From positions 205,406,001 to 205,470,000 of the forward strand of contig OZ024742.1 of NCBI GenBank assembly GCA_964016885.1: a stretch of DNA of 64,000 nucleotides, given 5' to 3'. Source of the DNA: Eledone cirrhosa. Taxonomy: Eukaryota. Below the pieces are notes generated by a model. That model saw only the letters and a list, made by a program, of their open reading frames with translations. It did not search any database and had not been told where the DNA came from. A program made the position numbers and the translations under genes. Each line of letters starts with the position of its first letter. Positions within the stretch are counted from its first letter, which is position 1. Of this stretch, positions 1 through 34,117 are shown in pieces.

Positions 1-3000
1 CTAAATCTAGTCTAAATCTAAGGTAAATCTAAGCTAAATTTAAGCTAAATCTAAGCTAAATCTGAGCTAAATTTAAGGTTAATCTCACCTAAATGTAACT
101 TATATCTAGGCTAAACCTAATCATAATCTAAGCTAAATCTAAGCTAAGTCTAAGCTAAACTTCATCTAAGTCTAAGCTAAATCTAATCTTAATCTAACCT
201 AAATCTAAGCTAAATTTCACCTAAATCTAAGCTAAATCTAAGCTAAATCTAAGTTATATTTCACCTAAATCTAGGCTTAATCTAATCGAAATCTACGCTA
301 AATCTAGTCTAAATCTAAGCTAAATCTAAGGTAAATCTATGCCACATCTCAGCTAAATCTAAGCTAAATCGAAGTCAAATCTAAGCTAAATCTAAGCTAA
401 ATCTCACATAAATCTAAGTCAAATTTAAGCTAAATCTAAGCTGAATCTAAGCTAAATCTAATCTAAATCTAATCTAAATGTAACCTATATCTAAGCTAAT
501 CCTTACCTAAATCTAAGTTAAATGTAAGCTTAATCTAAGATAAATCTAGGCTAATTCTAAGCTAAATCTAAGCTAAATCTCACCTAAATCTGAACTAAAT
601 CTAAGCGAAATCCCAGCTAAATCTAAGCTGAATCTAAGTTAAATATCAGCTAAATCTAAAGTAAATCTAAGCTCAATCTCAAATAATCTAAGCTAAATCT
701 AAACTAAATCTAAGCTAAATCTAAGATAGATCTAAGCTAAATCTAACATAAATCTAAGCTAAATCTTACATAAATCTCAGTCAAATTTAAGCTAAATCTA
801 AGCTGAATCTAAGCTAAATCTAAGCCAAATCTCAGCTAAATCTAAGCTAAATCTAAGTTAAATCTTAGGTAAATATAAAGTAAATCTAAGCTAAATATCA
901 CCTAAATCGAAGCTAAATATAAGCTAAATATTAGCTAAATCGGAGCTAAATGTAAGCTAAATCTAGTCTAAATCTAAGTTAAACCCTGAGCTAAATCCAA
1001 GGTAAATCTCACCAAAATCTCACCTAAATTTCAAGTTAAATCTAGACTAAACCGTAGCATAATCTAAGCTAAATCTAAGCTAAATTTAAGCTAAATCTAA
1101 GCTAAATCTAAGCTCAACCTAAGCTAAATCTCACCTAAATCTAAGTTAAATCTCACTTAAATCGAAGTCAAATCTAACATAAATCTAAGCTATATCTAAG
1201 CTAAATCCTAGATAAACTTCATCTAAATCTAAGCTAGATCTAACATAAATCTATGCTAAATATAGTCTAAATCTAAGCTAAATCTAAGCTAAATCTAAGC
1301 TTAATCTAATCTAAATCTACGCTAAATCTAGTCTAAATCTAAGTCAAATCTGAGCTAAATCTAAGGTAAATCTCACCTAAATCTAAGTTAAATCTAAGCT
1401 AAATCTAATCTAAATCTAAGGTAACTGTAAGCTAAATCTAAGCTAAACCTTACGTAAATCTAAGCTAAATCTAAATTCAATCTAAGATAAATGTAGGCTA
1501 ATTTTAAGCTAAATCTAAGCTAAATCTCACCTAAATCTAAGCTAAATCTAAGCGAAATCTCAGCTAAATCTAAGCTCAATCTCAAATAATCGAAGCTAAA
1601 TCTGAGCTAAATCTAAGTTAAATCTAAGCTAAATTCAATCTAAATCAACGCTAAATCTAGTCTGAATCTAAGCTTAATCTGAGCTAAATTTAAGGTAAAT
1701 CTCACCTAAATGTAAGTTAAATCTAGGCTAAACCTAAGAATAAGCTAAGCTAAATCTAAGCTAAGTCTAAGCTAAAATTCACCTAAATCTCACATAAATC
1801 GAAGTCAAATCTAAACTACATCTAAGCTAAATCTAAGCTAAATCTAAGCTAAATTTAAGCTAAATCCTAGCTAAATCTAAACTAAATCTAAGCTAAATCT
1901 AAGCTAAATCTAACCTAAATCTAGTCTAAATCTAAGCTAAATCTGTGTTAAATCTGAGGTAAATCTCACTTAAATCTAAGTTAAATCTAAGCTAAATCTA
2001 AACTAAATCTGAGCTAAATCTAAGGTAAATCTCAACTAAATCTAAGTTAAATCTAAGATAAATCTAATCTAAATCTAAGGTAAATGTAAGATAAATCTAA
2101 GCTATACCTTACCTAAATCTAAGCTAAATCTAAACTCAATCTAAGATAAATCTGGCTAATTCTAAGCTAAATCTAAGCTAATTCTCACCTAAATATAAGC
2201 TAAATCTAAGCGAAATCCCAGCTAAATCTAAGCTCAATCTCAAATAATCTAAGCTAAATCTGAGCTAAATCTAAGTTAAATCTAAGCTAAATCTAATCTA
2301 AATCTAATCTAAATCTAAGCTAAATCTACGCTAAATCTGAGCTAAATCTAAGTTAAACCTAAGCTAAATCTCACCTAAATCTAAGCTAAATCTCAGATAA
2401 ATCGAAGTCAAATCTAAACTAAATCTAAGCTATATGTAAAGTAAATCTAAGCTAAACTTCATCTAAATCAAAGCTAAATCTAGGCTAAATCTAACATATA
2501 TCTAAGCTAAATCTAGTCTAAATCTAAGCTAAATCTGAGCTAAATCTAAGGTAAATCTCACCTAAATCTAAGTTAAATCTAAGCAAAATCTAAGCTAAAT
2601 CTAAGCTAAATGTAAGCTATATCTAAGCTAAACCTTAGCTAATTCTAAGCTAAATCTAAGCTAAATCTCACCTAAATCTAAGCTAAATCAAAGCGAAATC
2701 CCAGCTAAATCTAAGCTGAATCTAAGCTAAATCTTAGCTAAATCTAATGTAAATCTAAGCTCAATCTCAAATAATCTAAGCTAAATCTAATCTAAATCTA
2801 AGCTAAATCTAAGATATATCTCAGCTAAATCTAACATAAATCTAAGCTAAATCTCACATAAATCTAAGTCTAATTTAAGCTAATCTAAGCTGAATCTAAG
2901 CTAAATCTAATCTAAATCTAAGCTAAATGTAACCTAAATCTAAGCTAAACCTTACCTAAATCTAAGTTAAATGTAAGCTAAATCTAAGATAAATCTAGGC

Positions 3001-6000
3001 TAATTCTAAGCTAAATCTAAGCTAAATCTCACCTAAATCTAAACTAAATCTAAGCAAAATCCCAGCTAAATTTAAGCTGAAACTCAGCTAAATCTACTCT
3101 AAATTTGAGCTAAATCTAAGCTATACCTAAGCTAAATCTAAGCTAAATCTAAGCTAAACCTAAATGAAATCTCACCTAAATCTAAGCTAAATATCACATA
3201 AATCGAAGTCAAATCTAACCTAAATCTAAGATATATCTAAGCGAAATCTAAGCTAAACTTCACCTAAATCTAATCTAAATCTAGGCTAAATCTAACCTAA
3301 ACCTATGCTAAATCTAGTCTAAATGTAAGGTAAATCTAAACTTAATTTAAGCAAAATCTAAGCTAAATCTGAGCTAAATATAAGGTAAATCTCACCTAAA
3401 TCTAAATTAAATCTAGGCTAAACCTAAGCATAATCTAAGCTAAATCTAAGCTAAGTCTAAGCTAAACTTCATCTAAGTCTAAGCTAAATCTAATCTTAAT
3501 CTAATCTAAATCTAAGCTAAATCGAAGCTAAATCTAAGCAAAATCTACGCTAAATCTAAGCTAAATCTACGCTAAATCTAACCTAAATCTAAGCTAAATC
3601 TCACCTAAATCTAAGCTAAATCTAAGATAAATCAAAGCTAAATCTAACCTCAATCTAACCTAAATCTCACATAAATCGAAGTCAAATCTAACCTAAATCT
3701 AAGCTATATTTCACCTAAATCTAAGCTAAATCTAAGCTATATCTAAGCTAAATCTAAGTTAACTTTCACCTAAATCTAAACTTAATCTAATTGAAATCTA
3801 CGCTAAATCTAGTCTAAATCTAAGCTAAATCTAAGGTAAATCTATGCCACATCTCAGCTAAATCTAAGCTAAATCGAAGTCAAATCTAAGCTAAATCTAA
3901 GCTAAATCTCACATAAATCTACGTCAAATTTAAGCTAAATCTAAGCTGAATCTAAGCTAAATCTAATCTAAATCTAAGCTAAACGTAACCTAAATCTAAA
4001 CGTAACCTACATCTAAGCTAAATCTAAGCTAAATCTAAGCTAATTCCTAGCTAAATCTAAACTAAATCTAAGCTAAATCTAAGCTAAATCTAACCTAAAT
4101 CTATGCTAAATCTAGTCTAAATCTAAGCTAAATCTGAGTTAAATCTATGGTAAATCTCACCTAAATCTAAGTTAAATCTAAGCTAAATCTAAGATAAATC
4201 TCACTGAAATCTCACCTAAATCTAGGCTAAACTTCACCTAAATCAAAGCTAAATATAAGCTAAGTCTAATCTAAATTGCAGCTAAGTCTAGTCTAAATAT
4301 GAGTTAAACGCTGAGCTAAATCTAAGGTAAATCTCACCAAAATCTCACCTAAATTTCAAGTTAAATCTAGGCTAAACCTTAGCATAATCTAAGCTAAATC
4401 TAAGCTAAGTCTAAGCTAAACTTCACCTAAATCTAAGCTAAATCTAATCTAAATCTAATCTAAATGTAAGTTAAATCTAAGCTAAAATCTAAGCTAAATC
4501 TAAGCTAAATCTAAGCTAAATCTAAGCTAGATCTCACCTTAATCTAAGCTAAATCTACGCTAAATCTGAGCTAAACCTAAGCTATATCTAAGCTAAATCT
4601 AAGCTAAACTTCATCTAAGTCTAAGCTAAATCTAACATAAATCTATGCTAAATCTAGTCTAAATCTAAGCTAAATCTAAGCTAAATCTAAGCTTAATCTA
4701 ATCTAAATCTACGCTAAATCTAGTCTAAATCTAAGCTAAATCTGAGCTAAATCTAAGGTAAATCTCACCTAAATCTAAGTTAAATCTAAGATAAATCTAA
4801 TCTAAATCTAAGGTAAATGTAAGCTAAATCTAAGCTAAACCCTACCTAAATCTAAGCTAAATCTAAACTCAATCTAAGATAAATCTGGCTAATTCTAAGC
4901 TAAATCTAAGCTAAATCTCACCTAAATATGAGCTAAATCTAAGCGAAATCCCAGCTAAATCTAAGTTCAATCTCAAATAATCTAAGCTAAATCTGAGCTA
5001 AATCTAAGTTAAATCTAAGCTAAACTTCACCTAAATCTAAGCTAAATCTAATCTAAATCTAATCTAAATCTAAGCTAAATCTACTCTAAATTTGAGCTAA
5101 ATCTAAGCTATACCTAAGCTAAATCTAAGCTAAATCTAAGCTAAACCTAAATGAAATCTCACCTAAATCTAAGCTAAATCTCACATAAATCGAAGTCAAA
5201 TCTAACCTAAATCTAAGATATATCTAAGCGAAATCTAAGCTAAACTTCACCTAAATCTAAGATAAATCTAGGCTAAATCTAACCTAAATCTATGCTAAAT
5301 CTAGTCTAAATCTAAGGTAAATCTAAGCTAAATTTAAGCTAAATCCAAGCTAAATCTGAGCTAAATTTAAGGTAAATCTCACCTAAATCTAAATTAAATC
5401 TAGGCTAAACCTAAGCATAATCTAAGCTAAATCTAAGCTAAGTCTAAGCTAAACTTCATCTAAGTCTAAGCTAAATCTAATCTTAATCTAATCTAAATCT
5501 AAGCTAAATCGATGCTAAATCTAAGCAAAATCTACGCTAAATCTAAGCTAAATCTACGCTAAATCTAAGATAAATCAAAGCTAAATCTAACCTCAATCTA
5601 ACATAAATCTCACATAAATCGAAGTCAAATCTAACCTAAATCTAAGCTAAATTTCACCTAAATCTAAGCTAAATCTAAGCTATATCTAAGCTAAATCTAA
5701 GTTAACTTTCACCTAAATCTAAGCTTAATCTAATCGAAATCTACGCTAAATCTAGTCTAAATCTAAGCTAAATCTAAGGAAAATCTATGCCACATCTCAG
5801 CTAAATCTAAGCTAAATCGAAGTCAAATCTAAGCTAAATCTAAGCTAAATCTCACATAAATCTAAGTCAAACTTAAGCTAAATCTAAGCTGAATCTAAGC
5901 TAAATCTAATCTAAATCTAAGCTAAACGTAACCTAAATCTAAGCTAAACCTTACCTAAATCTAAGTTAAATGTAAGCTTAATCTAAGATAAATCTAGGCT

Positions 6001-6345
6001 AATTCTAAGCCAAATCTAAGCTAAATCTCACCTAAATCTGAACTAAATCTAATCGAAATCCCAGCTAAATCTAAGTTGAATCTAAGTTAAATCTCAGCTA
6101 AATCTAAAGTAAATCTAAGCTCAATCTCAAATAATCTAAGCTAAATCTAAACTAAATCTAAGCTAAATCTAAGATAGATCTAAGCTAAATCTAACATAAA
6201 TCTAAGCTAAATCTTACATAAATCTCAGTCAAATTTAAGCTAAATCTAAGCTGAATCTAAGCTAAATCTAAGCCAAATCTCAGCTAAATCTAAGCTAAAT
6301 CTAAGTTAAATCTTAGGTAAATATAAAGTAAATCTAAGCTAAATA
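1..6345. repeat. Satellite array, 11-bp unit CTAAATCTAAG, with higher-order variant structure
   Basis: Continuous degenerate repeats of CTAAATCTAAG. Rare variants recur at fixed offsets: TATGCCACAT at 338, 3843 and 5786; AATCTTAGGT at 861 and 6309. Confidence 0.97.
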
Positions 6346-7690: not shown

Positions 7691-7764
7691 CTCTTTTACT
7701 CTTTTACCTGTTTCAGCCATCCGGCTGAGGCCATGCTGGGGCACCGCCCTTGTTGCTACACATT

Positions 7765-10700
7765 TTATCTCCAGCCTGTATAGGTTGGCCACTGGTGTAG
7801 GAGGGAGTTTGTTGCTGCTGCCCTTAGATTTCCCTCGTGTCTTGCTGTGGGCTCATCCGGGATCCTGGATAACAAGGTGTCGAGATGTTTCTTAAAGACA
7901 TCCACCTCCACGTCATGCAAGTCTCGCAGATGCCTCGGCAGCCTATTGAAGAGTTGAGGGCCCTTGAATCCCAGGCTATTGCAATACCTGCTCCTTATTC
8001 TAGATGTGGAAGACGGGACCTTTGGCACCACACAAGTGACGTCCTGTTCGACGGTTGGTCCAGCTCCCAATGCCAAAGTTTGGTGCTAGTCCCTCCAGGA
8101 TTTTCCACATGTAGATCACTGCGTATCTCTCCCGTCTTCGCTCCAAGGAGTAGAGGTTCAGTTCCTTCAGCCTCTCCCAGTAGCTTGTCTCCCTCATCTT
8201 GGCAATCCTCTTGGTGTAGCTTCACTGGATTGCCTCAAGCTCTGTGGTTAGTTTGACACTATGGGGTGACCACAGCTGGGAGCAGTAGTCCAGGCGGCTT
8301 AGGACAAAAGTCCTCCACAGTGTCAACATGGTGTCTCGATCTCTTGTAAGGAAAGTCCTCAAGATCCAGCCTGCGAATCGTCTACATGCTGTCGCCACCT
8401 TCATGATGTGTGAAGAAAAAGATGCATCATCGCTCATGTCTATGCCCAGGTCTCGTATCGATTTTGACTCGGGGATATCGGTCCCTCCTGGTCCTGTGTA
8501 GCTGTGTTCCGCTATATTTGTGTTTGCAGGTTTGTATTGTAGGGCTTGGAATTTGCCAGCATTAAACTGCATGTTGTTTTCTTCCGCCCATCTGTATATG
8601 GCATCCAGATCCTGCTGTAAGAGGGCAGCGTCAGCCGGGTTTTTGATTGCCTGTGCTACCTTAGTGTCATCAGCATAGCTAGTGAGGGATGTTGTTGCAT
8701 GCACCACAGAGGGCATGTCCGAGAGAGCCACCAAAAACAGTAGTGGTCCCAGGACTGTCCCCTGAGGCACCCCACTTGTTATCGGTGTTTCCCTCGAGAG
8801 GGCCCCATTTGCTGCGACTGCCTGGCTTCTGTCCCTCAGGAAGCCATGCAGCCACTCACCTACTTTTCCAGTTATGCCGAGTCCGTGTAGTTCGTGACAT
8901 ATCATTCCGTGGTCGACCTTGTCAAAGGCCTTCGCAAAGTCAAGATATATCACGTCTACATGTGAGCTGTCTAGTAGCTGTCTCAGTACCCAGTCGTAGT
9001 GATGTAGCAGCTGTGTAAGGCAGCTTCTTCCTGGGCGGAAGCCATGTTGCGTGCTAGTCAGGCGGTCATTTTCTTCGAGGAAAGTGATTAGTTTCTTTCT
9101 GACGACTCGCTCCATGACCTTACTGATATGCGACGTCAGGGAGACTGGCCTATAGTTCTTGGCCTCCGCTCTACTACCTCCTTTATGGATAGGGCATATT
9201 GTGCCTTCTTTCAGCTCCCTGGGTAGTACACCGCTAGCCAAGGAGCTTCTGAAGAGCATCTTCAGTGGAGTTGCTAAGGCCCGCTTACATATTTTTAGGA
9301 GAACTGCTGGGAATCCATCAGGTCCAGCAGCCGAGTCTGTTCTAATTTCATCAATGGCGTACACCACATCCTCTTCCGTTATGTCTATGTGGTTGATGGT
9401 TGCCATTTCTTGATGTAGTGTTGTGGCATCAAAGAACTCCTCTGGCTTCGTTATTTGCATGTGCCTCAGTGGACATGTGAAGACACTTTTGTACTGTTCG
9501 TTCAGTATTTCACATATCTCTTGGGGATTTTCGGTTAATGAACCGTCCGTGTGGAAGAGTGGTCCAATCTTGCAGTGTACTGAGGCAGTTTCTTTTGCAA
9601 ATTTAAAGAAGGCCTTAGGGTTTGTTTTAATGTTTTCTATGGCCCTGTTCTCTTTCCTTGCCCTCTCATTCTCATGTGAAAGCTTGAGTGCAATCTCGGT
9701 GTCAAGTAGTGCACGTTTCAAATAGGATTCCTTCTTGTTTTGGTTTTGTTGACTATTCAACTGGTTTGAGAGTTTAGTTCTACGTCTCATAAGGATTTTC
9801 CTATCTCTGGGAATAAGATTTTTGTGTCTGTTTGCCTCTTTCTCCGGGACACACTTTTTGCATATGGTGTGTATCGTTGTCATGAAGTGTTGAAATTGTG
9901 TGTTAGTGTCTTGTGTGGCGATGTTTGCACTCCATGTTTGCTTCCGGATTTCACTCTTAATCTTCTTCCAGTCAGCCCCGTAGAAGTTAAGGCTGGATAG
10001 CGTCCCAGAGCTTCTTGGTGGTTTTGTCTCTGTTGGTTCTCTTGGACCACATATCATTAACTCTACCAAGTTATGATCCGAGAGAATTGTTGGTGTCACC
10101 TTTACATTGTGGATGAGCACTTCGTTGTTTGTAAAACAGAGGTCCAGGACATTTTCGCCTCTTGTTGGGAGGAGTATTGCTTGCTCCATGAACAGCCTGT
10201 GTGTGAGGGCTAGCAGGGATTCCGTCTGTCTCTGTTCTATTGACGTCATTCCAGGGAGGAGGTGGCCCTCAGGCCATTTGACCTTTGGTAGGTTGAAGTC
10301 TCCCAGCAGTAGGATGTTGAGACCCTGGTCCAGTTTGTCAAGGACCTCTTCTATCCTACTTAGGCTATCCTCAAATTTACCCTCATGACTGGGGGCATCG
10401 GGCGGCCGATATGTGACACATATTACCGTCTGTAGTTGCTTCATATGTATTATCAGTGTGTCACAGACTGAGTTTGAATGTGTCAACAGTACAATTGGTG
10501 TGACATCTTCACGGATATACAGAGCAACCCCACCATGAGTTCTCTCCTTCCTGTCCGAACGAAATACAGTATATTTCGGTATATGTATTTCTGCATCTGC
10601 TATACTGCTTGTCAGGTGTGTTTCAGTTAGTGCCATGCATAGTGCTTGATTGCTTATGGCTAAGTCTCCCAGGTAGGAAATTTTACTCATGTTGCTGAGT

Positions 10701-10990
10701 TTCACCAGGCCCCTGACATTCAGCAGCAGCACTGGTGTGACTTTTGGGGTGCCAGTAATGGCTGACGGTATGACACCTGGTCTGGTGTCAGCGGCGGCCA
10801 CTCTGGGTCCCTTAACTGCGGTGGCCTCGAGTGCTGGTGTGGATGACCCTGGCTCTGGAGACGATGCAGCCAGGTCAGCTGTCCCACAATCTTCTCTGCC
10901 ATCACTAAAAAATTTTTCTGATCTGCTGCTGCCATCTGTATCTCGTCGGCATGAGCGTGCCTTCTCCTTGTTGGTGCAGCACGCGCGACA
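7765..10990 (-). pseudogene. LINE ORF2: APE endonuclease + reverse transcriptase (CR1-like), two lesions
   Basis: Endonuclease motifs LLNVRGL, LTETHL, GDFNLP, SDH; RT motifs YRPVSL, QHGFRPGRSC, LDFAKAFDKV, GVPQGTVLGP, YADD; CR1-type C-terminus YWERLKELNLYSLERRR and QLFNRLP. In-frame TGA at 8222-8224 (likely CGA>TGA) and a 1-bp insertion near 8034. Frame is open back to 10990. Confidence 0.93.
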
Positions 10991-11673
10991 TCAGCATACT
11001 TCTGGAGCGGCTTATTTCGGCTTAGGCTGGGGCATGTTGCGCGAGTATGATGGGCATAGTTCGTTTGAGACCTAGGGTGGGCGAATCTGCATCCCATCCC
11101 TGTCTCTCCATGCCAGCATGTCCCGTTCTTGAAAAACTTGCACATTACTTGGGGTTTTTTGCTCCCAGTGTCTCGGTGCTTTCTGTTCTTTCTTTGAACA
11201 GTTGTCCACTGGTCCCTCTGCGCTTGGTTCTCCTTCGGAAGGTGATTTCGCTTTTCACCTTTGCCCTTAGCTTGTTGGTTGCCCGGCCTGCCCTCCCTGC
11301 CTGTAGCGGAGGGTATATCATTTTCTTTCAGGTCCGTGCTTGTGCTCTCCTACTTTTCCTTTTCCCCCTCTTTTTCCTCTTCCTTTTCCCTCTCCTTCTC
11401 CTCATCCCTCCCTTCGGTTTTCTCCTCCCTGAGGACACGGCTTAGCATCGCCATATGAGGCGCTATGAGGACATACGCCTTCTCAATTTCTTTTCTCTTT
11501 CTCTCTATCTGTACCAGGGTCCTCAGAAACCCATGGCTCTTCAGGTTCTCCGCCATCTTTTTGCTTGGTGGAGACCCATCAGCCATAGTCCACCCCTTGA
11601 TCAAAACCGCTAGTTCAATCTTCGACCAGTTTCGCTGACTCCTGATTTCACATTTTTCCTGCATGCAGTCCAT
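10720..11673 (-). pseudogene. LINE ORF1: Myb/SANT-like (trihelix) domain + charged linker + CCCH zinc finger, one premature TAG
   Basis: ATG at 11673. RNWSKIELAVLIKGW...MAENLKSHGFLRTLVQIERKRKEIEKAY fits the trihelix pattern. After the TAG at 11350-11352 the same frame continues (ESTSTDLK...) into CKFFKNGTCWHGETGMGCRFAH and ends at 10720. Confidence 0.75.
10906..10912 (-). promoter_or_regulatory. Candidate -1 ribosomal frameshift heptamer U_UUU_UUA
   Basis: ORF1 reads CAG AAA AAT TTT TTA GTG; a -1 shift enters the ORF2 frame (TTT TTT AGT GAT GGC). A hairpin follows downstream. Confidence 0.6.
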
Positions 11674-11987
11674 TTCGCTGTGGAGGGGAGAAAGAGAGAC
11701 AGTGGGAGGTGTAGGGTAGAGGTTAGAGAGGGACAGAGTGAGGGAGGGAGATAGAGATATAACTCCAGCGAGAGAAAGAGAAAGAGAAACAGAAGAAAAG
11801 AAAAGAAAAGGGGGAGACAGAAGAGGGGAGCGAGAGAGATAGCGGGAAGAGTGGGGGGGGGTCAGAGGGATAGAGAGGAGATAGATAGAGAGAGAGAGAG
11901 AGAGAGAGCTCGTTGATCTAGAGAGAGGGAGAAAGAGAGCTTGTTGATCGAGAGAGAGGGGGGGAGAGAGAGAGAGAGAGAGAGGGG

Positions 11988-12055
<68 letters not shown>

Positions 12056-12628
12056 CAGCGTGAGAACGTGAGCAACAGCAGTTCACAAATACAAAAATAA
12101 ATTTTTAAATTTAAATTTAAATTTAAATTAATGAATGGAAGAAACCGGAAACATAGAGATATAGAAACACGATGTAAATGTCTGTTTACAAATACACGAA
12201 GTTATTGCAATATCAGCATATCATACAAGAAACAACGAAATCGGGTCAAATACAGATAGGATTATACAAAATCAAACAAGATTATATCAAATTAAATTAT
12301 GTTACTCAGAAAAATCAAAATTAATACAAGATCTGCTTAAGTTAAACCAAAATGCTCTGTATGGTAGACAAACAAAAATAGAAAGCACGTGTGTGTGTTG
12401 TCTCCTATGAATGAATCATACGGTGAAAATAAACATGTTCAAAACGGTAATATATGTAAATATACTTCAAAATAATTGCGTCAAAGCACAAAAACTTATC
12501 TTTTTTGTATGTTTTCCTTGTCCTCTGAAGAATTAAAACCATACATAAATCCGATTACTGTTGATTTAAAATATTAAAATTTCAAATCCGGAGAGACGAC
12601 AATTCACGTCTTATACCAACAAGTGCCA

Positions 12629-12755
12629 AGCCTATATATATACATATATATACATATATATATACATATATATATATATACAAATATATACATATATATA
12701 TATACATATATATATATATACATATACATATATATATATACATATATAAATATAC

Positions 12756-29715: not shown

Positions 29716-31957
29716 AATAATAAACAGAACAACTGAATGTTGCCACTCAACCAAATTCTACTGAAAAGTTATAAAGCTTAATCCAGTATCCTGGATTTAA
29801 TGCATGGAAACAAATTCCTACAGTTTTTTTTCTTTTTTATTTGGAATATTGTTTGACAAAATTATTTAAAAGCATTCACTAGAAAAATGTTAGCTCTTAA
29901 ACATTAAAAATGTCTGAAGTTGAAGAGTTGTGGCATTCATATTATCAAATAAAATCAATATTATAGTTTTTAAATTTAAAAATAAAATAAAATAATGCAA
30001 TTTCTTTTTTTTTTCTTTGCTGTATAAATTATTCCTTCTTATATTTCTAGACTTGATTTACAGTCTGCATTTACATAGATTTTTCTTAAAAATTAACTAT
30101 GTTTGAGGTTTCCTGGTTATTTCTTTCTCTCTCATAGGGGACTTGTTATCAACACATTTTGGGGTTGTAGCTATTAACCCCCAGTTTATAACATCGTTTG
30201 CCAATGATATAATGTTATTTCTGCGCATGGTAAAAGTGATCTCCAGAGAATAGCCAATATAATTACAATCTGAACATATCTATACAGCTACATAAAAAAA
30301 AAAAAAATGTTGGTGACCATATTAATAAAATGGTAGTTGTTAAGCATTTCTTAAAGATAAGTTTCTCATGACCCCGAAAATACTACAAGAATTTACATGA
30401 CTGTTTCACCATTATCAAAAATGAAAATTCATTAAGTAAAAAAAGAAAGTATGAAGGGAATACATTTACTTTGATATGTTGAACAATCTGCTCCTACTTA
30501 TCTTGCCTATAATATCTTTTGAGGATAACTTGCTGCTCATTTATAAGTTATGACTAACAGCCTGGAACCTATTTTATTACATAAAGATAACTGATAAGAT
30601 AAGAAAAATAATTGTAAACTTGATAAATTAAATAATACATAAAAAATATTCTCAAAGAGCAATTTTCTAAAAAATATAACCTACAAATTTTCAGAATTCT
30701 GTATTGGTAGAGAGCCAAGATTGCTGAGTCGAATAAACATTGGATACTTGATAAGTTGTGAGTTCAAATCTGCCAAAAATAATCCATTGTTTCCAAGTAA
30801 AACACTTTATAGTACATAGCCTCTGTTTACTTAATTGAAGAAAGTAGTACAAAACTATCAAGGAACATTAGCCAAGAATGTTGTTAAAAGGAAGAGCAGA
30901 TAAGATTTGATGTCCTGAAACTGGAACAAAGCACCAACTCTTTAAAAGCCCCTCAGGTTAACAAATTAGCCTGTATGTGGTCAGTTATACTAAAAATAAG
31001 AGAAAAATCTCCCTTAAATCACACCCTATCTTAAGAAAAAACAGAATACATTAGATAAGGTGGTCCTGGATAAACTATGTCTGAAAAAAAAAAACGAAGG
31101 TCATGCCTTTAATGTTTTTGATTCTAGGTTTACTAAGCTAGGACCAACAGCAACAGGCCTTTCAGTGCTTGGATTTCATATTAAAATATCAGTGTCAGTT
31201 AATGACAAACTAGAAAATCAGTGCTGAATTGCTGAGTAATTTAGGAATCTCATATAACATTTCATCTCTCTATATATAAAATTCTTTGTCTCTCTGTCTG
31301 TCTTTTCCTTATGCATTCCCAAATGGCTCGACCAAATTAAATCAAATTTTACAAGGTAATAAATAGTATTAGACTTGTTACCAGGAGTAACAACATGTAA
31401 TTTTTATTTTCATTTGGATTAAAGCAATATAACATTTTATCTAAAATATTCTACTATAGGCAACTAAGTAAATGGATATTTTATAACACGACGACGATGT
31501 CACATTTTGTATATGGGCGTGTATGTGAGTGTGAGTGCGCGTTTGTGCATTTGTTACATGTTACGCCTTAGTAAGTTACATACACACACATCTTCACGTA
31601 AATACTTAATCAGATACACAGATAATTAACACTGACAAAAACGGGGAGGTAAAAGACTATGCATATGTTTGTGTGAATGTATGTCCTGTGTCTGTCTGTC
31701 TTAGTATATGTGTGTGAGTATATGTGCGTATGAGTATACATACATTTCTTTGACGACTGACATAACGAAATGCTGGGTGTGAAATTCTATGTGTTTGTAT
31801 GAATATATATCTGTATGTGGTTTTATAAGTGTATGTTTGTGTAAGCGTATGTGTGTGTGTTCATCTAATAAGTATTGTCGCAGTTGCATGATATATACAA
31901 ATACACATTTACCATTAAATTAACAGTTAATACATTTACTTATATTTGGTTAATATT

Positions 31958-34117
31958 CACTACGAGAGACTATTCAATGAGGAGAATAAGTGGGAAAAAG
32001 ATAGTCTGCCCCAAATCGATCCAATAGAAGGACCAGCGGTGCAAGTTAAAGGTAGTATAATAAGTAAGGCAATCAAAGATATGAAGACAGGCAAGGCAGC
32101 TGGGTCTTCGGAGATAGTTGCTGAGATGTTGAAGGCATCTGGAATGGTGGGACATACTATGGTCACCCGTATAGTTAACCAAGTAATACAGAATGGGGTC
32201 ATACCAAAAGACTGGCGTAGCAGCATCATCATCATTAACTGCTACAAGGGTAAAGGAGATGCTCTAGATAGAGGAAACTATAGAGGCATTAAGTTAGTTG
32301 ACCAGGTCCTGAAGGTCACAGAAAGAGTTATAGCGCAACTAATCAGAGAGCGAATTGATCTAGATGAAATGCAGTTTGGGTTTGTGTCAAGTAAAACTAC
32401 CACAGACGCTCTTTTCCTTGTACGACAACTACAAGAGAAGTACCTAGCTAAAAGTAAACCCCTCTACTTAGCTTTTGTAGACCTGGAAAAAGCCTTTGAC
32501 AGAGTCCCCCGCTCCATTATCTGGTGGGCTCTTAGAAAGCTAGGTGTAGATGAATGGCTTGTGAGAGCTATACAAGCTAAGTATAATGAAACAGTCAGTA
32601 AGGTTAGAATTAACAATGAATATTGTGAAGAATTTAGTGTAAAAGTTGGTGTTCACCAAGGCTCTGTCCTTAGCCCCCTCCTATTTATTATTGCCCTTCA
32701 GGCTATAACAGAGGAGTTCAAGACCGGCTGCCCATGGGAACTCCTATACGCAGATGATCTAACGCTCATAGTTGAATCAATGGCTGAACTAGAAAAGAAA
32801 TTCGAAACGTGGAAGCATGGCCTAGAATCAAAAGGCCTTAAAGTTAACTTGTCTAAGACTAAAGTCCTAGTTTGTAGAAAGGAAAATAAGGCACAGGTAC
32901 CCTCAGAGAAATGGCCTTGCTCAGTGTGTAGGAAAGGAGTAGGCAGAAATTCAATTGTATGTCCCAAATGCAATGTATGGGTACATAAAAGATGTAGTGG
33001 GATCACAGGTAAACTATCTAAGAACGTAGACTTTATATGTGGCCGATGCTCAGGTGCAATAGGTAGCAAGTGTCCAAAGGATACTAGCCCCTTCTATTGC
33101 CCAGATGGTTCTATAGAAATAGTAGACACTTTCCGTTACCTGGGTGATGAAATCAACAGTGGTGGAGGGGGTTCTGAAAGTACAGTAGCCAGAGTCAGAA
33201 CGTGATGGAAAAAGTTCAGAGAGCTTATACCGCTGTTAGCCACAAAAGGTTTCTCTCTAAAAATGAAAGGCAGATTGTATGATGCTTGTATACGAACAGC
33301 AATGCTACATGGCAGTGAGACATGGGCATTGCGTGCAGAGGACCTGCGTAGACTGGAAAGGAACGAAACATGCATGCTCCGTTGGATGTGTAACAGTAAT
33401 ATACGTGAACGGCAAAGGGTAAATGAACTAAGTGAGAAATTAGGAATAAGAGGGATCAAATGCTGTTTACTTGAGAGAAGACTACGTTGGTATGGCCACG
33501 TGATGCGCATGAAAGACGACAGCTGTATAAAAAAGTGCAGGGCGATGAAAATTGATGGTAGTTATGGAGTAGGTAGACCCAGAAAAACCTGTGACGATCT
33601 GATAAATTCCAACCGTACACACTTGCACCGCTCTAAGACAATGTCACTGGACCGAGATCTTTGGCTCTACACAGTAATACAGAAGACCCGCCTTGTCTAT
33701 GTACAAAGCGAAACCTACAGTCAGTAGGCACCTCTTAACCAAATATACACCCCAATCCACTACCCCTACCCTATCCTCCCACTCCCACCAACACCACCCT
33801 CTCTCTATAAAGTTGGTACCACAACATCCAGTCCAAATAAATGAGATAAATGAGATCGAGATCGTGTAGGTGTCACGAGAAAAAACATACAGTCCACGCT
33901 GTAATGTGGCCGTGTAGGTAATACGGTAAAAAGTTCCCAGTTCCACACTGTAAATTTGGTTGGTGTTAGGAAGGGCATCCAGCCGTAGAAAATCTGCTAG
34001 ATAGTCCTATATGAGCGAGACACAGTCACCCGACCAACCTTGCCTCAAGTGGGACAACTCCCGTCTAACTCATGCTAGCGTGGAAAATGGACGTTAAACG
34101 AAGATGATGATGATGAT
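31958..34117 (+). mobile_element. 5'-truncated RTE LINE (RT + PHD-like finger), sister subfamily
   Basis: ORFs 31946-33205 and 33263-33727 closely match the 20572-22953 protein; stop at about 33203; (GAT)n tail. Confidence 0.93.

Follow-up and report, generated by a model that had tools for sequence, protein, structure and literature searches.

The CR1-group LINE described here, family A of the Eledone cirrhosa genome, probably expresses its second open reading frame by programmed -1 frameshifting at a U_UUU_UUA heptamer, which would yield an ORF1-ORF2 fusion protein. Judging from the sequence, we put the probability of this reading at about three in four. The two-ORF layout, the absence of an ATG, and the conservation of both the heptamer and a downstream stem were observed directly. 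Frameshifting is favored because the family is young and abundant and has many intact ORF2 frames despite the lack of an ATG before the motif-I Asn of the endonuclease, and because the heptamer is kept in family A, in its relative family C, in the unrelated family B, and in most foreign elements in which a long ORF1 overlaps ORF2 in -1. The reading is weakened by a stem that lies 17 nt away, has an ordinary folding energy and is missing in family B, by a linker without amino acid constraint, and by the retention of GTG and ATA codons in the ORF2 frame. The signal is real and well conserved, and the recoding mechanism itself is already known from other systems.

The element and its ORF1/ORF2 junction

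The window, a stretch of 64,000 nt, carries a copy of family A on the reverse strand (Table 1). The initial annotation had placed the element in the CR1 group, and this label is borne out by domains, tree placement and 3' end. ORF2 encodes an APE endonuclease followed by a reverse transcriptase (PF03372/PF14529 and PF00078, all above the Pfam cut-off). In RT trees, families A and B form a long-branch clade beside a cluster with P0083, a bird (Mycteria americana) RT protein that we take to be CR1; the second tree was a quick one without family B. The 3' tail of the window copy and of three full-length copies (L266-L268) consists of two to three 8-nt units and is not poly(A). Short tandem-repeat 3' tails are a feature of CR1-group LINEs.

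The Myb/SANT-like and CCCH matches in ORF1 are both below the Pfam cut-offs, and the named ORF1 homologues are all from Octopus vulgaris. The term "CCCH" is absent from the accessible text of a survey of ORF1 proteins (PMC4120745). A genome search with the distant ORF1 homologues P0124-P0126 recovered family A alone, a search of viral contigs gave nothing useful, and one of the ESM Atlas gave no usable match.

The window copy is dead: ORF1 is interrupted by a TAG at 11352, and ORF2 by a TGA at 8224 and by an insertion of 1 nt at 8035. The TAG is private to this copy and absent from the other 28 loci that cover the position. The family is abundant (765 DNA candidates in the 3.0-Gb host genome) and young, with all 40 scored candidates of the 765 at least 99% identical. 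An intact ORF2 frame of 1076 codons, always the same, was present in 47 of 150 scored family A matches, and ORF1 measures 317-320 aa in intact copies. A (TA)n microsatellite flanks both ends of the window copy (7691, 12632) and of the three full-length copies, suggesting a target preference.

Several other repeats were seen in the window. A different LINE, presumably RTE-like and with a Cys/His cluster behind its RT domain, is present in three copies (19730-22950, 31931-33724 and 53172-54779). Positions 1-6344 are a satellite of about 576 copies of an 11-bp unit, and 24137-26049 hold 4.1 repeats, 100% identical, of a 466-bp unit, either a recent duplication or an assembly artefact. A transposase-like fragment (26875-27285) is, we assume, of the Tc1/mariner type.

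Table 1. Features of the family A element in the window (positions on the forward strand).
Feature	Position	Strand	Remark
CR1-group LINE, family A, full-length, about 4.9 kb	7691..12632	-	ends by comparison with copies L266-L268, domains by Pfam
3' tail, short 8-nt tandem repeats	7691..7707	-	
ORF1, 317 aa when intact; weak Myb/SANT-like N-terminus, one CCCH finger, C-terminal xFL and helix	10720..11673	-	
ORF2 frame, -1 relative to ORF1: ATG-less linker, APE, RT	7765..10990	-	broken in this copy at 8224 and 8035
APE endonuclease in ORF2	about 10723-10064	-	
RT in ORF2	about 9190-8522	-	
Second heptamer A_AAU_UUU, overlapping the first	10909..10915	-	not conserved
Slippery heptamer U_UUU_UUA in the ORF1 frame	10906..10912	-	predicted shift site
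Spacer, 17 nt	10889..10905	-	
Bulged stem-loop: 16 bp, 5-nt and 1-nt bulges, 13-nt loop	10838..10888	-	
GTG (ORF2 frame), 10 nt upstream of the ORF1 stop	10730..10732	-	candidate reinitiation start
First ORF2-frame ATG, 10 codons past the motif-I Asn (10720-10718)	10688..10690	-	

The junction proved to be laid out as the initial annotation had described it. The ORF2 frame opens at 10990, directly after a TGA at 10993, and the overlap in the -1 frame, given as about 270 nt, measures 268 nt between the two stops. TTTTTTA at 10912-10906 is read in the ORF1 frame as part of N-F-L, and the first in-frame ATG of ORF2 is at 10690, inside the endonuclease. In the 922-codon ORF2 frame, the endonuclease match starts at residue 90, followed by the motif-I Asn at residue 91 and, at residue 101, by the first Met. 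The matching Asn is required in the LINE Zorro3, in which N17A retained less than 5% activity according to the accessible part of PMC1965478.

In place of a single continuous ORF or an ATG before the endonuclease, either of which would speak against frameshifting, the copies have two ORFs and an ATG-less start of ORF2. No ATG precedes the endonuclease in any of the 30 closest loci (window copy included), and none precedes the motif-I Asn in 95 of 100 distinct family A copies, the other five having scattered ATGs. A fixed single-ORF form of the family was sought in 10 long-frame copies and rejected, as no common indel was found at the junction. The first ORF2 ATG lies 30 nt past the ORF1 stop at 10722 and within the endonuclease, and near the stop there is only a GTG; the AUG-at-stop arrangement of SART1 is therefore absent. 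The GTG at 10732 is kept in 95/100 family A copies and 19/30 family C loci, and an ATA at 10771 in the ORF2 frame is kept in both families. Between A and C, the -1 linker shows 7 synonymous and 26 non-synonymous changes and thus no amino acid constraint.

Conservation of the slippery heptamer

A heptamer of the form X_XXY_YYZ lies in the zero frame inside the -1 overlap. With the three amino acids and the codon usage of the element kept fixed, U_UUU_UUA arose in 1.0% of resamplings for family A, and any canonical heptamer was in frame in 3-10% of shuffled overlaps. We collected 148 family A loci, of which 146 cover the junction and reduce to 100 distinct sequences (86-100% identity). The heptamer is intact in 75 of these, and the others have scattered changes, with at most 4 copies affected per column. 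Variants found in at least 10 of the 100 copies occur at the three bases directly 5' of the heptamer and at three loop positions, and 10912-10868 is free of such variants. Contigs from 4 runs (2 samples, 1 study) had the same pattern of variation as the genomic copies. The overlapping A_AAU_UUU was rejected as a shift site, positions 10915-10913 each being variable in 13-15 of the 100 copies.

Family C is an old relative, represented by 30 loci with a mean identity to A of 67% near the junction. Its -1 stop at 10993 is common with A in 24 of 29 loci, and the loci have no shared -1 stop from the heptamer to the endonuclease. The commonest letters of family C differ from A in none of the 7 heptamer columns, versus 21 of 48 upstream columns. 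In these decayed copies, U_UUU_UUA is intact at 14 of 30 loci; the length of the T-run varies among old copies. At the protein level, Phe-Leu is kept at the junction in six aligned ORF1 homologues with 25-44% identity.

A genome search with a three-finger ORF1 homologue identified family B, and searches of the genome with P0139 and P0165 returned family B and no further new family. Family B ORF1 contains a PHD-like domain and three CCCH fingers. The ORF2 proteins of A and B are 42% identical, whereas their junctions lack DNA similarity and their ORF1 domains differ. We examined 25 loci; a downstream anchor recovered 24 copies, all of which carry U_UUU_UUA, here in the context S-F-L-G. In 21 of the 24, the -1 frame starts 6 nt upstream of the heptamer, and the first ATG typically follows the motif-I Asn by 66 codons. 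When checked for conservation, the heptamer was thus kept within family A, in the old family C and in the distant family B, in each case beyond protein constraint (codon-usage probability about 0.01 in A and in B). Side by side, ORF1 of L002 (A) and L252 (B) have a Myb/SANT-like N-terminus with one CCCH finger and a PHD-like N-terminus with three, respectively, and share the junction. Families A and B also have an identical run of six bases 24 nt after the heptamer.

As a control, we screened foreign LINEs on eukaryotic-looking contigs from metagenome and genome-collection scans; 160 loci were among the matches listed, and the junction was readable in 36 of these. Eight foreign CR1-group elements among the matches listed have an ORF1 of at least 150 codons, a cut-off set post hoc, that overlaps ORF2 in -1. 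Seven of the eight carry a canonical in-frame heptamer (three U_UUU_UUA, one U_UUA_AAC, two C_CCU_UUA and one A_AAA_AAC), and the eighth has U_UUU_UUG. Outside the A/B clade, six of seven elements have a heptamer compared with 0.9-1.2 expected, which would correspond to a P of about 1e-5 to 3e-5 for independent elements; they stem from only about four lineages and so are not independent. In five of the seven heptamer-positive elements there is also an in-frame ATG before the Asn. The sole foreign member of the A/B clade among the matches listed, L301, has A_AAA_AAC instead of F-L, plus an ATG. Four other foreign elements overlap in +1. Under relaxed criteria, L052 joins the positives, and L125, L328, L324 and L375 count as four further negatives.

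In the esterase-type elements L054 and L304, the heptamer lies just before the ORF1 stop and is followed 11 nt on by a GC hairpin (z -2.0 and -2.3). Heptamer, stop and hairpin together form the textbook layout of a predicted frameshift site. When the residues were kept, the resamplings for A, B, L302, L054 and L304 each yielded the heptamer codons at a rate of only about 1-3%.

Protein relatives were also inspected. In a dual-frame test against ORF1 tails, P0002 fitted best directly at F-L in 5 of 8 cases (equalled by 0-69 of 300 shuffles), and P0003 gave no significant result in the same test. In P0002, the Leu codon ends with the A of an ORF2-frame ATG. P0017, P0163, P0164 and P0052 combine CCCH fingers and endonuclease in one continuous ORF (three cluster members have 1160 aa), which suggests that a fused form is tolerated. 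P0165 and P0138 have 2A-like (ExNPGP) motifs upstream of a PHD/CCCH ORF1; if these relatives also frameshift, two recoding events would take place on one mRNA. Many of the contigs with loci L300-L379 are filed as bacterial or archaeal genomes and carry animal-type LINEs, indicating host contamination of those assemblies.

The downstream stem-loop

The minimum-energy fold contains the stem that the initial annotation had named about 17 nt after the heptamer; it comprises 16 pairs (10888-10838) and starts at +17 nt. A closer pairing with CTGCATC, offered there as an alternative, is unsupported across relatives and was rejected. The stem is no more stable than shuffled sequences (z +0.38, -0.36 and -0.20), and RNAalifold recovered neither the named stem nor the closer pairing.

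Covariation was then examined between families A and C. Five stem positions differ, four of them in two compensatory pairs (10884/10842 and 10873/10848; G-C to A-U and C-G to U-A), and one breaks a terminal pair; in the loop, 6 of 13 positions differ. We aligned 51 sequences, namely the window, 26 copies of A and 24 of the 30 C loci; the covariation score was matched by 0 of 500 shuffles, although this test is inflated by relatedness and amounts to two events between two lineages. Slid controls paired at 30-38%, versus 92% for the stem. Within family A, the commoner variants of the 3' arm are compatible with pairing (10843 in 35 copies, 10842 in 8), and a variant at 10849, in 7 copies, is at the bulge.

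Shift sites usually have a spacer of 5-9 nt, with 11-14 nt in arterivirus and cardiovirus cases, according to the accessible text of PMC5009743. No stimulatory structure was found at 5-9 nt: the covarying stem starts at 17 nt, the closer pairing fails, and family B has no convincing stem and none comparable to that of family A. The stem is too far from the heptamer for a classical stimulator.

We also looked at pairing of the shift region with the far 3' end of the element, the arrangement of long-distance frameshift elements of the luteovirus type. In family A, an 8-bp match between the loop and the ORF2 stop region was equalled in 7 of 116 other sequence windows and was absent in three family C ends, and family B had no 8-bp match of its shift region within the element end. 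In the foreign element L315, the bases right after U_UUU_UUG (site 1000-1006) have 11-bp complementarity to the ORF2 stop, about 2.9 kb away, equalled by 0 of 103 other windows. L302 has a looser match of this kind, judged by eye.

Translation of ORF2

In the mechanism that we propose, most ribosomes would read ORF1 to the stop and produce the 317-aa protein, and a minority would slip back by one base on UUU-UUA. The slipped ribosomes would then read a linker of about 60 codons into the endonuclease and produce a fusion of about 1,300 aa (256 ORF1 residues and 1048 ORF2 codons) carrying the putative RNA-binding CCCH finger. As in gag-pol, ORF2 products would thereby be kept at a low ratio to ORF1 products. 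The weakest step of this scheme is that the stem, at +17 nt, would act as a stimulator; the heptamer may act largely alone or with a bound protein.

Termination-reinitiation, the main alternative, would instead give a separate ORF2 protein, as in L1 and SART1, with ribosomes stopping at 10722 and restarting at GUG 10732 or at a CUG that overlaps the stop. In families A, B and C, ORF1 ends where the endonuclease begins, A and C have kept the GTG, and the -1 linker is free of amino acid constraint, all of which fit this account. Reinitiation is also the mechanism described for SART1 and L1 (PMC5972666, accessible text), and L1 tolerates non-AUG codons (PMC1965478, accessible text). However, reinitiation leaves unexplained the heptamer in three families and the opening of the family B frame at the heptamer. 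In the endonuclease, a Leu codon ending in G or A next to the Asn codon is enough to generate a stop in the ORF1 frame, and the stop position in A and C is therefore passive. The CTG codons are CTA in family C, and no UAAUG-type stop-start occurs in the ORF2 frame. We consider reinitiation improbable.

The heptamer could also be a side effect of Phe-Leu conservation where an ORF1 helix begins, with ORF2 reached via splicing or transcriptional slippage. F-L does open a conserved helix-like segment in ORF1 homologues, and the variable T-run of old copies is compatible with this idea. It is made highly unlikely by the rarity of the heptamer codons in the resamplings of all five families and elements named above, and by the esterase-type elements, in which F-L ends a different protein. 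We give the least credence to internal initiation within the overlap, with the stem as a landing site and a near-cognate codon, or an AUA edited to AUI, as the start. The stem and the in-frame ATA are conserved, cephalopods edit A to I extensively, and P0002 has its ATG at the Leu codon; yet family A has no ATG of the P0002 type, and the heptamer would again be unexplained.

Programmed -1 frameshifting has precedents at the same site. U_UUU_UUA in an N-F-L context is the gag-pol heptamer of HIV-1, and U_UUU_UUA is also the alphavirus 6K/TF shift site. Family A resembles retroviral gag-pol in that a structural ORF overlaps an enzyme ORF in -1 and in having a downstream stem-loop and a predicted low-abundance fusion. 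Unlike gag-pol, it belongs to a non-LTR element, has no protease to cut the fusion, and has its stem 17 nt off. Alphavirus 6K/TF likewise shifts in -1 with diverse stimulators, in Semliki Forest virus without RNA structure (PMC5009743, accessible text), but its shift gives a viral accessory product and not access to a polymerase.

The initial annotation regarded -1 shifting as typical of retroviruses and LTR elements, and reinitiation as the way of LINEs. This stands for SART1 and L1 in the accessible text of PMC5972666, but not for Dictyostelium TRE5-A and TRE3-A, for which the legend of a review figure gives, without elaboration, a -1 frameshift as needed for ORF2 (PMC5911963). Like family A, these are APE-type LINEs with a -1 frameshift for ORF2, attributed there and predicted here; unlike it, they are amoebal and target tRNA genes. 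SART1 and L1 share with family A a bicistronic mRNA and, in SART1, structure near the ORF junction. However, both have an AUG located at the ORF1 stop or beyond it, used by UAAUG coupling in SART1 and by unconventional reinitiation in L1 (PMC5972666 and PMC3894237, in part), whereas family A has none and a 268-nt overlap. The 2A StopGo of CR1/L2/Ingi LINEs is another virus-like recoding, proposed to limit ORF2 (PMC3708506 and PMC3894237, in part), but its mechanism is different and splits a single ORF instead of fusing two. Drosophila HeT-A gag has been reported to require frameshifting in a non-LTR element (PMC5009743, accessible text); unlike in family A, that shift lies within gag and there is no RT gene. 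Across the accessible text of these sources, to which PMC5443660 and PMC11835228 belong, LINE recoding is covered by reinitiation, StopGo, HeT-A and TRE5-A/TRE3-A. The worked cases named in the available portions of reviews are SART1 and L1, both reinitiation, and translation of the second LINE ORF is described as an open question in that of PMC3894237.

Our literature search, whose scope took in few subscription papers, found no report of a slippery site in CR1 elements. Overlapping ORFs are reportedly described in older papers on CR1 (Anopheles T1/Q, turtle), which may have suggested frameshifting. We tentatively propose, at a little short of even odds, that -1 frameshifting is common and possibly ancestral for ORF2 of two-ORF CR1-group LINEs with PHD/CCCH, Myb/CCCH or esterase ORF1 proteins, that their replicase would be a Gag-Pol-like fusion, and that the distant stem in CCCH lineages may bind ORF1 protein and thereby tune the slip.

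Family A is young and rich in intact copies, and its seven-base site with the covarying stem would represent a third route to ORF2, one that a reporter can test directly. If the frameshift reading is correct, the ORF2 protein of many CR1-group elements would be a fusion with the ORF1 RNA-binding domain, and both the annotation of ATG-less ORF2s and the view of RNP assembly would change.
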